Source: Escherichia coli
Lineage (GTDB): Bacteria > Pseudomonadota > Gammaproteobacteria > Enterobacterales > Enterobacteriaceae
Length of the DNA: 64,000 bases
Strand: one strand, 5' to 3'
Assembly: GCF_041886205.1 (NCBI RefSeq)
Contig: NZ_CP169029.1
Part shown: positions 47,990-61,167 of the stretch, in pieces
Layout of the letters: each line of letters opens with the position of its first letter
Position numbering within the stretch: position 1 is the stretch's first letter
Notes under the pieces: generated by a model
The model's input: only the letters and a program-made list of their open reading frames with translations
Told to the model about the DNA's origin: nothing
The model's database searches: none
Program-made: the position numbers and the translations under genes

Positions 47990-48316
47990 ATGACTAAAAA
48001 TACTCGTTTTTCCCCCGAAGTCCGTCAACGGGCAGTCCGTATGGTTCTGGAAAGTCAGAGCGAATATGACTCACAATGGGCGACAATTTGTTCCATTGCT
48101 CCAAAGATTGGCTGTACGCCGGAGACTCTGCGTGTCTGGGTTCGCCAGCATGAGCGGGATACCGGGGGCGGTGATGGAGGGCTCACCACCGCTGAACGTC
48201 AGCGTCTGAAAGAGCTGGAACGTGAAAATCGTGAACTGCGCCGCAGTAACGATATCCTTCGCCAGGCTTCCGCTTATTTTGCGAAGGCGGAGTTCGACCG
48301 CCTCTGGAAAAAATGA
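47990..48316 (+). CDS. IS629 transposase OrfA (HTH)
   Basis: 108-aa [22 protein letters not shown]...; ends in an A-run slippery site. Confidence 0.85.
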
Positions 48317-49203
48317 TGCCACTGCTGGATAAGCTGCGTGAGCAGTACGGGGTCGGACCGCTATGCAGCGAACTGCATATTGCCCCGTCAACGTATTACC
48401 ACTGTCAGCAACAGCGACATCATCCGGATAAACGCAGTGCCCGTGCGCAGCGCGATGACTGGCTGAAGAAAGAGATACAGCGCGTATACGATGAAAATCA
48501 CAAGGTATACGGTGTGCGTAAAGTCTGGCGTCAGTTGTTACGGGAAGGTATCAGAGTGGCCAGATGCACTGTGGCACGTCTCATGGCGGTTATGGGACTT
48601 GCCGGTGTTCTCCGGGGTAAAAAGGTCCGTACGACCATCAGCCGGAAAGCCGTTGCCGCAGGCGACCGCGTAAACCGTCAGTTCGTGGCAGAACGACCTG
48701 ACCAGCTGTGGGTGGCTGATTTTACTTACGTCAGCACATGGCGGGGCTTCGTCTATGTGGCGTTCATCATTGATGTGTTTGCCGGATACATCGTGGGGTG
48801 GCGGGTCTCATCGTCCATGGAAACGACATTCGTGCTGGATGCACTGGAGCAGGCGTTATGGGCCCGTCGACCGTCCGGCACGGTCCATCACAGTGATAAA
48901 GGTTCTCAGTATGTATCGCTGGCCTACACACAGCGGCTTAAGGAAGCCGGATTACTGGCATCAACAGGAAGTACAGGCGACTCGTATGACAACGCGATGG
49001 CGGAGAGCATCAATGGTCTTTACAAAGCGGAGGTAATACACCGTAAGAGCTGGAAAAACCGTGCAGAAGTGGAACTGGCCACACTCACGTGGGTGGACTG
49101 GTATAACAATCGACGATTGCTGGAAAGGCTGGGCCATACTCCTCCGGCAGAAGCAGAAAAAGCTTATTATGCTTCCATCGGAAACGATGATCTGGCAGCC
49201 TGA
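48313..49203 (+). CDS. IS629 transposase OrfB (DDE integrase domain), -1 frame relative to OrfA
   Basis: 296-aa ORF with DDE motif region; overlaps orfA in the -1 frame as in IS3-family elements. Confidence 0.85.
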
Positions 49204-51047: not shown

Positions 51048-51467
51048 TTAAGAGGCTTTTTGTTTTTTCTTTCGTGCTAACTCTTCGTAAATTGCATTGT
51101 ACTTCTGTTTTTTCTCTTCAAGAGTTTTTAAAAGTTCATCTGTCTCACTGTCAGGGAGCTCGTCCAGAAGGTCAATGATGATTTTTTGTCTTGGATTTAA
51201 CTCCTGATAGAAACGTACCTGTCCACTTTCTTCTGTATCCTCTCCCAAAAGATAGGTTGGTGTTGTTCCTATTAGTGTTGCTAATTCCCTTAATTTCTCC
51301 CGGCGAGGAATTGTTTCGCCATTAAACCATTTGCTAACCGCTTTTGGTGTTAATTTCATTCGACGGGCAATTTCTGCCTGCCTTCCATGTTGTTCATAAC
51401 CAGCGTTTTCACAGGCTAGCGCAAGCCTACTGGCGAACTCTTTACGCGCTTTATCTTCATGAACCAT
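51048..51467 (-). CDS. prophage repressor, XRE-family HTH (DicA/cI-like)
   Basis: 139-aa ORF with HTH (…MKLTPKAVSKWFNGETIP…); divergent from a Cro-like gene. Confidence 0.75.
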   Translation of the reverse strand: MVHEDKARKEFASRLALACENAGYEQHGRQAEIARRMKLTPKAVSKWFNGETIPRREKLRELATLIGTTPTYLLGEDTEESGQVRFYQELNPRQKIIIDLLDELPDSETDELLKTLEEKKQKYNAIYEELARKKKQKAS

Positions 51468-51546
51468 AAGTTCAATGATATTCGCTCTTGAATGTACTGT
51501 CAGTTCTGTTATAGCATGTACTCAAAGTTCACACTGTGAGGGTGAT

Positions 51547-51801
51547 ATGAACCAGAAAACACTTGAAGATGTAATCAAAACTGTTCGCGTTGCTGTTGTG
51601 GCCGACGTTTGTGGTGTCAGCCAAAGAGCAATCTATAAATGGATGGATAACGGAAAATTGCCTCGCACAGAATATACCGGCGAAACAAATTACGCTGAAA
51701 AAATCGCTCTTGCATCAAACGGATTATTTTCTGCCGATGCAATTTTAACTATTGGCAGGAATAAAACTACTACGAAAAAGCTGATGGGAGTTGATTCATG
51801 A
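51547..51801 (+). CDS. Cro/YdaS-like HTH protein
   Basis: ATG at 51547 with RBS GAGGGTGA; HTH (…VADVCGVSQRAIYKWMDNGKLP…); ATGA overlap with next gene. Confidence 0.65.
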   Translation: MNQKTLEDVIKTVRVAVVADVCGVSQRAIYKWMDNGKLPRTEYTGETNYAEKIALASNGLFSADAILTIGRNKTTTKKLMGVDS

Positions 51802-52223
51802 AAATCAAGCATGAACACATCCGCATGGCGATGAATGCCTGGGCGCATCCGGACGGCGAAAAAGTACCGGCTGCGAAAATTACCAAAGCGTATTTCGAGC
51901 TGGGAATGACGTTCCCGGAACTGTATGACGACAGCCATCCGGAAGCCCTGGCTCGCAATACTCAGAAAATTTTCCGCTGGGTGGAGAAAGACACCCCTGA
52001 TGCGGTTAAAAAAATTCAGGCGTTGTTACCAGCTATCGAAAAAGCAATGCCACCTCTGCTGGTGGCCCGAATGCGCAGTCATAGCTCAGCCTATTTTCGG
52101 GAACTAGTGGAGACGCGGGAACGACTGGTGAGAGACGCTGATGATTTTGTCGCAGTGGCGATCGCTGGTTTCAACCAGATGAATCGTGGTGGCCCTGCAG
52201 GAAATATTGTGGTTGTGCATTGA
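51798..52223 (+). CDS. YdaT-like prophage protein
   Basis: 141-aa ORF beginning MKIKHEHI..., same length class and context as Rac YdaT (recalled). Confidence 0.6.
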   Translation: MKIKHEHIRMAMNAWAHPDGEKVPAAKITKAYFELGMTFPELYDDSHPEALARNTQKIFRWVEKDTPDAVKKIQALLPAIEKAMPPLLVARMRSHSSAYFRELVETRERLVRDADDFVAVAIAGFNQMNRGGPAGNIVVVH

Positions 52224-52294
52224 CTCGCAATATTCATACCGGATCACTTCCGGCAATTTGTGAGTAAAAAGATTCGGTATCAAAAGAGGTGAGT

Positions 52295-53365
52295 ATGGCT
52301 AACGCCTGGCTCAGATTATGGCATGACATGCCAAATGACCCTAAGTGGCGAACAATTGCCAGGGTGTCAGGGCAGCCAATTGCAACAGTGATGGCAGTGT
52401 ATATCCACCTCTTGGTGAGCGCGTCACGAAATGTCACGCGAGGTCACATTGATGTCACGACAGAAGATTTGGCAAGTGCGCTCGACGTGACAGAAGAGGT
52501 AATTGATTCAATTTTGCAGACGATGCAGGGGCGGGTACTTGATGGTGATTTAATCACTGGATGGGAAAAACGCCAGGTGCTTAAAGAGGACAACGGCAAT
52601 ATTTCGCAAACCGCAAAATCTCCTGCAGAGCGCAAGAGGGCGCAGCGAGAGAGGGAAAGAAAGCGGGAACAAAATGGCGATTGTCACGGCGCGTCACGAA
52701 ATGTCACGCACATGTCACGACGAGTCACGACAGATAAAGATACAGATAAAGATACAGATCAAGAAGATCAAAACACTATGGTCCATGGCGTAAAAAACGC
52801 CACGAACCAGGCAGGGGATGTTCAGACCGTCAATCTTGGTCAGCCAGCAGGCACGACACCGGAAGCCGATTCAGCGTATGCGCTGAAAGCCGATTCGGGC
52901 GCTGTGCAGCAGGTGATGACCGCAAGGCCGGAGCAATCACACCAACTGCAGCAGCCCGAAGCCGATTCCGCCATTCAGCGGGAAGCCGATCGGGTAGTCC
53001 CGGAAAACACCGGGCAGTCTGTGGGACGAGTGGATTATCCGGATGTGTTCGAACAGGTCTGGCGGGAGTACCCGTTGCGTGCCGGAGCAAACCCGAAGAA
53101 ATCCGCTTTCAGTGCCTGGAAGGCCAGATTACGCGAGGGGGTGCCACCAGAGGCCATGCTGGATGGCGTGAGGCGTTACGCAAGATACTTGGCGGCTACC
53201 GGGAAAACGGGAACGGAATTTGTTCAGCGAGCGACGACGTTTTTTGGACCGGACCGGAATTTTGAGAACTCCTGGTTGCTCCCGGTAAGCGGCACGAACA
53301 ACCAGCGTTGTGTGAATCATATTTCTGAACCGGATAACGAAATTCCGCCGGGCTTCAGGGGGTAA
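52295..53365 (+). CDS. putative phage replication initiation protein (O/YdaU-like)
   Basis: Position after the cro-like gene; ATG at 52295 with RBS; internal iteron-like DNA repeats. Confidence 0.55.
   Translation: MANAWLRLWHDMPNDPKWRTIARVSGQPIATVMAVYIHLLVSASRNVTRGHIDVTTEDLASALDVTEEVIDSILQTMQGRVLDGDLITGWEKRQVLKEDNGNISQTAKSPAERKRAQRERERKREQNGDCHGASRNVTHMSRRVTTDKDTDKDTDQEDQNTMVHGVKNATNQAGDVQTVNLGQPAGTTPEADSAYALKADSGAVQQVMTARPEQSHQLQQPEADSAIQREADRVVPENTGQSVGRVDYPDVFEQVWREYPLRAGANPKKSAFSAWKARLREGVPPEAMLDGVRRYARYLAATGKTGTEFVQRATTFFGPDRNFENSWLLPVSGTNNQRCVNHISEPDNEIPPGFRG
52421..52760 (+). repeat. iteron-like direct repeats (putative prophage origin) inside the replication gene
   Basis: Exact 19-bp repeat GCGTCACGAAATGTCACGC at 52421-52439 and 52690-52708; about nine GTCAC motifs in two clusters; tandem ACAGATAAAGAT repeat at 52731-52760. 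Confidence 0.65.
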
Positions 53366-53405: not shown

Positions 53406-53828
53406 GTGGCAAAAGTTTTTACACAAGAAGAGCGGGAAAAAATTAAAGGGCAGGTTGTTGAACTCGTACGCCAGAGTGGGCGCGAGACGTTAAGACAACT
53501 GGAAACTAAAACTGGGGCAACAAAATATATGATGAACGTTCTGGCCAGAGAGCTGGTTGCCAGTGGCGATGTATACAACTCTGGTTACGGGTTATTCCCG
53601 TCTGAACAGGCGCGTAAGGACTGGCAAAATGCCCGTAAAAAGCTCTCAAGGGCAAAGCTGAAGAAACCATCTGCGGTTGATCCGGACCTTATCTGGTCAT
53701 TACCTGATGGAGAAATACGTCGTTACGACAGGCGTCATAATATGATTTGTACTGAGTGTCGTAAAAGCGAAGTTATGCAGCGCATATTGTCGTTTTATCA
53801 GGGGGATGTTCGGTATTTATTGAAGTGA
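53406..53828 (+). CDS. hypothetical prophage protein
   Basis: 140-aa ORF with GTG start and RBS AGGAGGG 6 nt upstream. Confidence 0.45.
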   Translation: MAKVFTQEEREKIKGQVVELVRQSGRETLRQLETKTGATKYMMNVLARELVASGDVYNSGYGLFPSEQARKDWQNARKKLSRAKLKKPSAVDPDLIWSLPDGEIRRYDRRHNMICTECRKSEVMQRILSFYQGDVRYLLK

Positions 53829-54223: not shown

Positions 54224-55228
54224 GTGGTCGTTAAGCCGGGCCGTGAATCCATGCCGGTATTCCACAATACCCGGGTACTGGTGGAGCCGGAACCGAAAAG
54301 CATGCGTAATCTGCCGTCCGGGGTCGTTCCTGCCGTTCGCCAGCCGCTGGTGGAAGACAAAACATTGCTGCCGTTTTTCAGTAACGCACGGGTAATTCGT
54401 GCTGCTGGTGGTGCTGGTGCATTGTCTGACTGGCTGTTGCGCCATATTAAATCCTGCCAGTGGCCACACGGCGATTATCATCACAGCGAAACCGTTATTC
54501 ACCGATATGGTACCGGCGCAATGGTGTTGTGCTGGCACTGCGACAACCAGCTGCGTGACCAGACATCCGAATCACTCGAGCAACTTGCTCATCAAAACCT
54601 GTCAGCATGGATGATTGACGTCATCGGTCACGCAATAAGCGGTACGCAGGAGCGTGAATTATCTCTGGCTGAATTATCCTGGTGGGCGGTCCGCAATCAG
54701 CTGGCGGACGCGCTACCGGAAGCGGTATTACGTCGCTCGCTGGGATTACCAGCGGAAAAAATCTGCTCGGTGTACCGCGAAAGCGACATCGTACCGGGAG
54801 AGCAGACCGCCACCAGCATATTGAAACAGCGCACAAAAAATCTTGCACCGTTGCCTCACGCCCACCAGCAACAAAACCCATCACAGGAAAAGACGGTGGT
54901 AAGCATCACCGTTGATCCAGAGTCTCCGGAATCTTTCATGAAGCTGCCTAAACGTCACCGGTGGGTTAAGGAGAAATACACACGCTGGGTTAAGACACAG
55001 CCGTGTGCTTGCTGCGGTATGCCAGCCGACGATCCGCATCATCTGATTGGTCACGGGCAGGGCGGAATGGGAACCAAAGCACATGATCTCTTTGTTTTGC
55101 CTTTGTGCAGAAAGCATCACGACGAGTTGCATACGGATACCGTGGCATTTGAAGAGAAGTATGGCTCCCAACTGGAGCTGATTTTTCGATTTATCGATCG
55201 CGCGCTGGCAATTGGTGTGCTGGCCTAA
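54224..55228 (+). CDS. DUF968-family prophage protein with C-terminal Cys/His (HNH-like) motif
   Basis: C-terminus …[43 protein letters not shown]…; start uncertain (GTG 54224 or ATG 54251). Confidence 0.55.
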
Positions 55229-60320: not shown

Positions 60321-60683
60321 GGTAATATTAAATCGGAACATTTACATCGCGGAATGTAAAATTTAAATAAAAAGGACTCTTCCATGAGCCAAAATTCCTG
60401 AAATCTTAAGGGTAAGATAAAAGGTCTTAATCAGAATGACACGTTATTATTAATAAATAAAGCTATTCTTTCATTGCTGTGTTTTTCTTTACAAAAGTAA
60501 TCCTTGCTATGGGTGGTTAATCATGCGTTAATGGTGTTCTGGTTTGTTACAAATTTATCTGAAGCAGTCATTGTTATAATTTTATTATTTGTACCTCTTG
60601 AGATTTCCTTGTTGGTTTTTCTCTCTGATATTTTTTTTCGGACCATTCTGCCCAAGGGCTAATTTCTTCAAAAGGTAATAATT

Positions 60684-60896
60684 ATGTCTAACAAAATGAC
60701 TGGTTTAGTGAAATGGTTTAACCCTGAAAAAGGTTTTGGTTTCATCACGCCGAAAGATGGCAGCAAAGATGTGTTTGTCCATTTCTCAGCAATTCAGAGC
60801 AACGATTTCAAAACATTAACTGAGAATCAGGAAGTTGAATTTGGTATTGAGAACGGACCTAAAGGTCCTGCCGCTGTTCATGTAGTGGCGCTTTGA
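60684..60896 (+). CDS. cspI: cold-shock protein (CspA family), prophage-encoded
   Basis: 70-aa [41 protein letters not shown]...; preceded by a long AT-rich leader. Confidence 0.8.
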
Positions 60897-61167
60897 GGTA
60901 GACAATATTACAAACCATATTCACTTTAGATGCCCGTGTTGTCATGGTTCCCAGTATAGAACATCATCTTTTGATGTTTCTGACATGAATCCTTTCGGGG
61001 CAAAATGTATCTTTTGTAAATCAATGATGATTACATTTGATAATATTTCACAATACTTAAATGCCAGCCGTCTGTCGTTGGATTTAAAAAAGTGAAAATG
61101 AAGGCTCCTTCGGGAGTTTTTTTGCTTGGTATCTATTCGATGGATACTCACATACTACGGTAACATC

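Follow-up and report, generated by a model that had tools for sequence, protein, structure and literature searches.

A lambdoid prophage of Escherichia coli probably carries its origin of replication inside the gene for its own initiator, and here I lay out the evidence for this reading. The window, meaning the whole 64,000-nucleotide stretch of contig NZ_CP169029.1 (RefSeq assembly GCF_041886205.1) that was analysed, contains an initiator gene at 52295-53365, and the segment 52423-52809 within it is, at a probability of about 85% judged from sequence, the replication origin of the prophage, best read as a bipartite iteron origin (repeated cores in two arrays) joined to a DNA-unwinding element. 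An earlier interpretation of the letters alone, called the sequence-only reading below, had considered a plausible origin in what it described as an O-like replication gene. The elements concerned, in their order along the DNA, are:

52295-53365, plus strand: initiator (replisome-organizer) gene, 356 amino acids, with an alternative GTG start at 52289
52423-52459, plus strand: iteron array 1, four direct cores (GTCACG at 52423, GTCACG at 52433, GTCACA at 52443, GTCACG at 52454)
52486-52491, minus strand: one inverted core, reading GTCACG on this strand, 27 bp past array 1
52683-52729, plus strand: iteron array 2, five direct GTCACG cores (52683, 52693, 52703, 52714, 52724)
52730-52774, no strand assigned: A-rich tract with a purine-strand bias, (ACAGATAAAGAT)x2.9 followed by CAAGAAGATCAAAAC, a candidate DNA-unwinding element
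52752-52770, no strand assigned: module junction; similarity confined to the N-terminal half stops at 52752 and similarity confined to the C-terminal half starts at 52770
52779-52809, no strand assigned: imperfect GC-rich palindrome, TGGTCCATGGCGT-AAAAA-ACGCCACGAACCA, with 13-nt arms (11/13 complementary) and a 5-nt loop

The sequence-only reading started from an exact 19-bp repeat, and this is indeed present: GCGTCACGAAATGTCACGC occurs at 52421-52439 and again, 270 bp further on, at 52691-52709, with no other match at two or fewer mismatches in the 64-kb window and none in 100 shuffles. The repeat unit behind this 19-mer is a 6-bp core, GTCACG, which is found 31 times in the 64 kb, the chance level overall, with nine of the 31 copies falling within 52423-52729. 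Each copy of the 19-mer had also been placed within a cluster of GTCAC motifs, and the counts bear this out, since of 105 GTCAC sites on both strands of the window, 10 crowd into 311 bp where 0.46 would be expected (Poisson P = 8e-11), and no other group of at least three such sites within 50 bp exists anywhere else in the window. The cores are spaced by 10, 10 and 11 bp in array 1 and by 10-11 bp in array 2, and a gap of about 230 bp separates the arrays. By structural mapping, array 1 encodes S44-T55, the stretch from the end of helix a1 through the b1 loop to the residue preceding helix a2 of a winged helix; the inverted core encodes D64-V65-T66, the turn ahead of the recognition helix; and array 2 sits in the interdomain linker. 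There is no DnaA box in the origin segment, the nearest one lying at 53417, and the total in the window is at chance level.

The repeats also surface in the protein, as ASRNVTRGHIDVTT and ASRNVTHMSRRVTT, the repeated peptide segments (SRNVT...VTT) that the sequence-only reading had pointed out, and one might argue that the whole phenomenon is a protein-level feature, either a peptide motif in several copies or a low-complexity segment prone to slippage; the peptides do recur, the linker is of low complexity (DKDT repeats) and copy number among homologs changes by in-frame 21-bp steps. However, the cores start at codon positions 3, 1, 2 and 1 in array 1 and 2, 3, 1, 3 and 1 in array 2, so that the identical six bases are translated as SR, VT, GH or CH depending on the frame, and the three reading frames yield peptides as unlike as CH, SR and VT. 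With cores in every one of the three codon phases, the repetition originates in the DNA and the repeated peptides are its by-product, and the period of 10-11 bp likewise rules out a peptide repeat as the source. Codon usage makes the same point, and the residues encoded by cores, compared across 18 ungapped homolog sequences, use the following codons:

S44: TCA in 17/18
V47: GTC in 18/18
T48: ACG in 18/18
G50: GGT in 18/18
H51: CAC in 17/17
V54: GTC in 18/18
T55: ACG in 17/18
V65 (inverted core): GTG in 15/15

By comparison, 16 other invariant residues with four- to six-fold degenerate codons use three to six codons each, and codon entropy is 0-0.31 under the cores versus 1.35-2.44 elsewhere (Mann-Whitney p = 2e-4). 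R49, a spacer codon, shows no such constraint, and TCA and GGT, rare in hosts of 60-69% GC, are still fixed where they underlie a core. From these frozen synonymous codons it follows that the cores are selected as DNA, and since codons are frozen only under cores, and likewise for two other core sequences described below, codon and frame analysis has, as far as sequence can, already refuted a protein-level origin of the repeats and leaves it next to no chance.

Relatives of the N-terminal domain are encoded at 41 loci in a scan that took one genome per species, and about 22 of these loci carry GTCAC at offsets of ~128, 138, 148 and 159 on the plus strand, 192 on the minus strand, and ~388, 398, 408 and sometimes 419 and 429. 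These GTCAC-type genes come from about 20 genera (hosts include Escherichia, Serratia, Rahnella, Pseudomonas, Bordetella, Chromobacterium, Stenotrophomonas and Pseudothauera) and from loci with a GC content of 0.48-0.69, with both arrays at the same offsets and with the inverted core at +192 in most. The sequence-only reading would have been countered by homologous genes that keep the replication function without the repeats; both arrays are kept in the ~22 loci, and some homologs, described below, lack one or both of them. The number of cores in array 2 is five in the window, three or four in most homologs and three to six over the full range, while E. coli NCTC86 (L003:3001-3560), E. albertii (L006) and Morganella (L025) possess a 21-bp in-frame insertion giving array 1 six cores rather than four. 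Copy number thus shifts in steps of two units, or seven codons, and one 10-bp plus one 11-bp unit make exactly seven codons, which fits the alternating 10/11-bp spacing. The gap between the arrays is 227-231 bp in 13 of 19 GTCAC loci. A fixed helical phasing between the arrays was considered and rejected, as the remaining gaps range from 192 to 340 bp without a common phase.

GTCACG is not the only core to be arranged in this way. A sister clade whose N-domains are 40-58% identical has no GTCAC and instead carries CGAACGC at ~130, 140 and 150 and again at ~350-400, in hosts such as Methylibium, Janthinobacterium, Variovorax, Acidovorax, Sphingobium and others; the codons frozen in this clade are TCG AAC GCa ACC GAA CGC ggn CGA ACG. 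O157:H7 prophages and Shigella phage 75/02 Stx (Shiga toxin) fuse a different N-domain to the same C-terminal half; in these loci (L004:2481-3572 from E. coli O157:H7 SS52, L002:3394-4482 from phage 75/02 Stx, and L046-L125) the core is GGGGCTT, at offsets 186/197 and again at 442/453/464, spaced by 11 bp and running through all three frames, with an inverted second array in phage 75/02 Stx. The possibility that the two N-domain families are homologous was examined and dropped (hhalign probability 0.3%). Homologs of the GGGGCTT family conserve HETGLGxEGASKGL and, in the linker, EGASKGLRSQEQEQEQ, and here too the codons are frozen as GAA GGG GCT nnn AAG GGG CTT, with other glycines using three or four codons. 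In the GTCACG, CGAACGC and GGGGCTT groups alike, the same motif occupies both arrays and tracks the N-domain, that is, the two arrays change in concert. The sequence-only reading had called the two-cluster arrangement unusual, and this is where it missed the mark, as the layout is a conserved rule in this initiator family and in a second, unrelated one. A Pantoea homolog of the N-domain (Pantoea sp. BAV 3049, L031:3001-3750) shows, as an observation of its own, a GIY-YIG-like segment (…YYVYFVVLRSNYDCYVGISSNPW…) inserted past the winged helix and a third type of iteron, ACTACGTA / CGTAGCTA, in arrays at offsets of ~325-375 and ~640-700, which are followed by CAGATACAGATACAGAT.

These comparisons also bear on the idea that the arrays serve another protein or process altogether, be it the repressor, a cII/YdaT-type regulator, a host factor, packaging at a pac site or site-specific recombination. 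The arrays do lie just downstream of the immunity region, and some pac sites, P1 pac for example, have a similar layout, with clusters of short hexamers on either side of a central region. But the cores differ according to which N-domain subfamily is encoded by the gene around them, neither a terminase nor a recombinase gene is adjacent, the segment lacks a DnaA box, and the non-Escherichia loci, which keep the arrays nonetheless, yielded no homologs of the window's repressor, cro, YdaT, C-terminal, Ren-like or HNH proteins; an unrelated binding partner is thus very improbable. The candidate-origin reading, on the other hand, came through all the comparative tests, and an origin served by the initiator would account for the frozen codons, for arrays that follow the N-domain, for their independence of neighboring genes and of the C-terminal module, and for a local minimum of helix stability, to which I now turn.

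The sequence-only reading had reported a tandem repeat past the second cluster, and this repeat, ACAGATAAAGAT, runs over 52730-52764 (2.9 copies, 95% match) directly 3' of array 2, the A-rich tract as a whole encoding DKDTDKDTDQEDQN. The least stable 40-mer of the initiator gene is 52733-52772, in the 99.3rd percentile of the window, and 10 of 14 homologous loci (locus GC 52-69%) have their overall stability minimum, taken in 40-mers across the full ~6 kb, in the equivalent tract. The tract has a GC content of 0.35-0.38 and an AT skew of +0.5. With every type of iteron, a purine-rich tract comes next after array 2, in the form of (GATAAA)n, (GATACA)n or (GAGAAG)n, or of (CAGGAA)n in the GGGGCTT family, and the Asp-Lys, Asp-Thr and Glu-Gln repeats of the proteins would then be the footprint of an A/T-rich tract that is kept both open for reading and hydrophilic. 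The notion that (GATAAA)n represents DnaA-trio or ATP-DnaA boxes was dropped, the simpler explanation being that it is the most A/T-rich stop-free way of coding for a hydrophilic Asp-Lys linker. Two GATC (Dam) sites lie within the tract, at 52757-52760 and 52766-52769, and GATC is present in the tract of several enterobacterial homologs as well; these sites may link the firing of the origin to methylation or to SeqA.

Directly 3' of the A-rich tract, and beyond the region that the sequence-only reading had marked, stands the GC-rich palindrome 52779-52809, which is also the sole notable item from promoter and terminator consensus scans of 50.9-54.3 kb, where the counts otherwise equal the shuffled expectation. 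A perfect inverted repeat with arms of at least 7 nt and located no more than 110 nt past array 2 is found in 37% of 35 loci compared with 10% of random windows from the same loci, which is no more than suggestive of a GC-rich inverted repeat as a recurrent feature after array 2, given that the loci in the sample are related.

The A-rich tract is furthermore a boundary between modules. Recombinant genes in E. coli share either bases 1-464 or bases 482-1075 of the initiator gene, and the alignment with NCTC86 agrees; the recombinants are thus joined within the A-rich tract, so that the N-domain is inherited in one unit with arrays 1 and 2. The C-terminal modules, for their part, differ widely among proteins sharing the N-domain and the arrays.

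What kind of initiator this is can be stated more exactly than by the term O-like, which was apt for the function and wrong for the family: no Phage_rep_O (PF04492) match appears in a Pfam scan of the full protein, so homology to lambda O was rejected, and where phage records use the name "DNA replication protein O", this is no more than an annotation. The protein is a DnaD-like winged-helix replisome organizer, built of an N-terminal winged helix (residues 1 to ~95), a basic and charged linker, and a C-terminal module with a DnaT-like tail. Its N-domain adopts the winged-helix fold with the lowest root-mean-square deviation to the N-terminal domain of DnaD, PHROG 3729 ("replication initiation protein") matches over the entire length, and the "replisome organizer" families 4880 and 5968 of PHROGs match at E = 4e-6 and 2e-4; the Pfam scan of the full protein found no significant domain, its one suggestive match being to Phage_rep_org_N along the full length of that model, and a PDB sequence search with the N-domain profile gave no match at E <= 1. 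The C-terminal module includes the tail ISEPDNEIPPGFRG, and residues 333-356 (53291-53362, …VNHISEPDNEIPPGFRG) match the C-terminal tail of DnaT (NF002770, positions 156-179 of 179, E = 7e-4). Identity with DnaT itself was discarded, as NF002770 scores 19.3 bits against an equivalog cut-off of 201 and only the last 24 residues align, and the label "primosomal protein I" in some records reflects this resemblance of the tail only. A PD..IP.GFRG tail ends many homologs despite C-terminal modules that are otherwise different. No helicase-loader gene (P or DnaC-like) comes after the initiator gene in the window prophage or in phage Tritos, while in sister variants a gene for "replication protein P" or a DnaC-like ATPase follows, the NCTC86 variant with the same N-terminal half having "replication protein P" next downstream. 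This suggests that the initiator of the window taps the host restart primosome or DnaB-DnaC directly.

Put together, these features allow a mechanism to be proposed. The N-terminal winged helix would bind the GTCACG cores, which by their recurrence every 10-11 bp would be presented on one face of the helix, head to tail, in two arrays; cooperative filling of the arrays, probably with bridging between them by looping, would build a nucleoprotein complex; this complex would melt the adjoining A-rich tract of low stability at 52730-52774; and the interchangeable C-terminal module would bring in the replicative helicase, which for the window copy, with its DnaT-like tail and no phage loader next to it, would be recruited from host DnaB-DnaC. 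Early rightward transcription of the initiator gene would at the same time traverse the origin.

Several points speak against reading the segment as an origin in this way. Literature searches yielded nothing published on this origin or on its initiator family; the similarity to Phage_rep_org_N (PF09681) is below threshold (E = 0.24, 11.8 bits, residues 5-122 against positions 1-118 of a 121-position model); no helicase-loader gene accompanies the initiator and an IS3-family insertion lies upstream, so that the window copy may not be replication-competent; the gap between the arrays has no fixed helical phase overall, looping being my own supposition; locus L042 has a decayed array 1 and keeps array 2 and its GATACA tract; and four paralogous N-domain homologs (L034, L035, L038 and L040), all from one betaproteobacterial metagenome-assembled genome (MAG), bin-090, have neither internal arrays nor an A-rich tract. 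One of the latter, L040, carries CGAACGC three times some 545 bp upstream of the gene (2436-2456), and these paralogs may have their origins outside the gene or be domesticated copies. From L042 and the array-less paralogs it follows that array 1 is not universally required, and it may be auxiliary or regulatory.

This leads to a variant in which both arrays bind the initiator but one of them, most likely array 1, serves autoregulation or copy control, for instance as a transcriptional roadblock on the initiator gene or as a handcuffing site, with array 2 and the A-rich tract as the origin proper. I regard this as possible, if somewhat doubtful. The state of L042, where array 1 has decayed but array 2 and the GATACA tract are kept, would fit, as would the facts that the A-rich tract adjoins array 2 only and that array 1 is ~230 bp away from it; however, the synonymous conservation of array 1 is as strong as anywhere in the system, array 1 exists in three iteron types, including that of an unrelated N-domain family, and the gap of 227-231 bp in 13/19 GTCAC loci suggests joint action. 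The synonymous conservation in three iteron types and the recurrent gap thus suggest that array 1 works with array 2.

The position of array 1 within the coding region of the DNA-binding domain raises a further, more speculative thought. When the N-domains of the GTCACG and CGAACGC groups are compared over positions 1-100, the sole consistently group-specific residues are 46, 47, 48 and 51, all of which are encoded by array 1; the next-best candidates for specificity are residues 65-67, with which the recognition helix begins and whose codons lie in the inverted core, and in the GGGGCTT family array 1 (codons 62-72) overlies the predicted recognition helix a3 (residues 61-73). The residues by which the initiator reads DNA might therefore be encoded by the very iterons that they read, hard-wiring the specificity of the protein to its site, although I consider this unlikely and the overlap could equally be the passive result of placing sites inside a small domain. 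If true, a mutation in array 1 would alter the reader together with its site, conversion would bring array 2 into line, and the phage would possess a built-in route to new origin specificities. In any case, the three iteron types offer a natural specificity-swap series, the first two N-domain groups of which consistently differ at four residues only.

How does this compare with origins already described? Lambda has direct-repeat iterons and an AT-rich tract midway through gene O (PMC7466680). As in lambda ori and the 933W and P27 variants of Stx phages, the origin proposed here is found mid-gene in the interdomain linker of the initiator, with iterons followed by an AT-rich tract; the N-domain travels together with its sites and the C-terminal module that interacts with the helicase loader is exchangeable; and in-frame variation in iteron number alters protein length, by 13 extra amino acids in Stx O and by seven amino acids per two units here. 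Lambda also has a palindrome past its AT-rich tract, as is the case here. Unlike lambda O, the window initiator has no Phage_rep_O domain; its cores are 6 bp long, direct, spaced by 10-11 bp and divided between two arrays, whereas the lambda iterons are ~19 bp, dyad-symmetric and in a single array; a second array is present ~230 bp upstream inside the sequence coding for the DNA-binding domain; and the window copy is followed not by a P gene but by genes for Ren-like/DUF977 and then HNH/DUF968 proteins. The "Eru" replication types of non-lambdoid Stx phages are defined by other gene sets, with nothing on origins (PMC8044961).

Among phages of Gram-positive hosts, ORF13 of TP901-1 and Rep2009 of Tuc2009 bind direct repeats in their own genes, which constitute the ori (PMC8965321), and G38P of SPP1 binds oriL (PMC5615212). 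The window initiator resembles these replisome organizers in its DnaD-like winged-helix N-domain, and the prokaryotic genome annotation pipeline (PGAP) names it "phage replisome organizer"; it differs in its proteobacterial hosts, iteron sequence, bipartite layout and DnaT-like C-terminal modules, and the PF09681 similarity by which it is set against them is sub-threshold only (E = 0.24). Looking further afield, both arrays in the window lie to one side of the A-rich tract and within a single open reading frame, unlike in the Staphylococcus aureus pathogenicity islands (SaPI) and P4. The SaPI ori, with two iteron sets flanking an AT-rich region, and the ori/crr of P4 share short iterons of 6-8 bp in two sets served by one initiator, and these initiators, a helicase in SaPI Rep and a primase-helicase in P4 alpha, are unrelated to that of the window. 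The design principle is thus already known, from lambda and from lactococcal phages, and what stands out is the split into two arrays with one in the part coding for the DNA-binding domain, the very short and helically phased cores, and the three-way specificity series.

The location of the origin would provide a handle for predicting which prophages can still replicate, support the construction of ori-plasmids and replicon typing for "lambdoid" phages that are not lambda, Stx phages included, and aid the reading of coverage peaks after prophage induction, while the frozen-codon signature offers a general and experiment-free route to origins that are hidden in genes. Relatives occur in prophages of Pseudomonas, Bordetella, Serratia and Klebsiella and in O157/Stx phages, and full-length copies are present in 1646 of 5426 complete E. 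coli genomes, where they are mostly annotated as "hypothetical protein", the PGAP name for most copies, or as "phage replisome organizer". Near-identical genes in phage genome records (Tritos, Evi and the vB_Eco series) are labeled "replication protein O", "replisome organiser" or "primosomal protein I".

The prophage of the window is lambdoid with an immunity region of the DicA/YdaS/YdaT type, and the genes that surround the initiator are:

51048-51467, minus strand: DicA-like repressor
51475-51801, plus strand: Cro/YdaS-like protein
51798-52223, plus strand: YdaT/CII-like protein
53406-53828, plus strand: Ren-like/DUF977 protein
54224-55228, plus strand: HNH/DUF968 protein

An inverted repeat at 52233-52283 (13-nt arms, 85% complementary, 25 nt apart) occupies the 71-bp gap from the YdaT-like gene to the initiator gene and could be a terminator or antitermination element gating transcription into the origin. 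Rfam detects no RNA family within the origin region. Elsewhere in the window, the IS3-family element in the early-left region (48271-49203) is marked by an ALIL pseudoknot at 48271-48387 (Rfam RF01497, 120 bits) and a transposase open reading frame of 296 amino acids at 48313-49203, and the prophage may be defective; a cspA-type thermoregulator in a 5' untranslated region (RF01766, 113 bits) at 60538-60923 implies that the prophage carries a cold-shock gene, as prophages of the Qin type do.

A few records call for comment regarding the host range. Two MAGs labeled Collinsella sp. (L005 and L045) and a record labeled Staphylococcus saprophyticus (P0036) contain genes 99-100% identical to that of the E. 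coli prophage, and these Gram-positive labels likely arise from contamination or mis-binning. A plasmid search for small replicons using the initiator module returned nothing besides large plasmids of E. coli, misfiled chromosomes and two records from P. aeruginosa. The latter, CP137943.1 and CP124671.1, are non-mobilizable "plasmids" of ~50.9 kb with an N-domain that is 73% identical; their size is that of the Pseudomonas phages 5399, phi1 and Marin, all of which have the same N-domain, and they are probably circular phage genomes captured as episomes.

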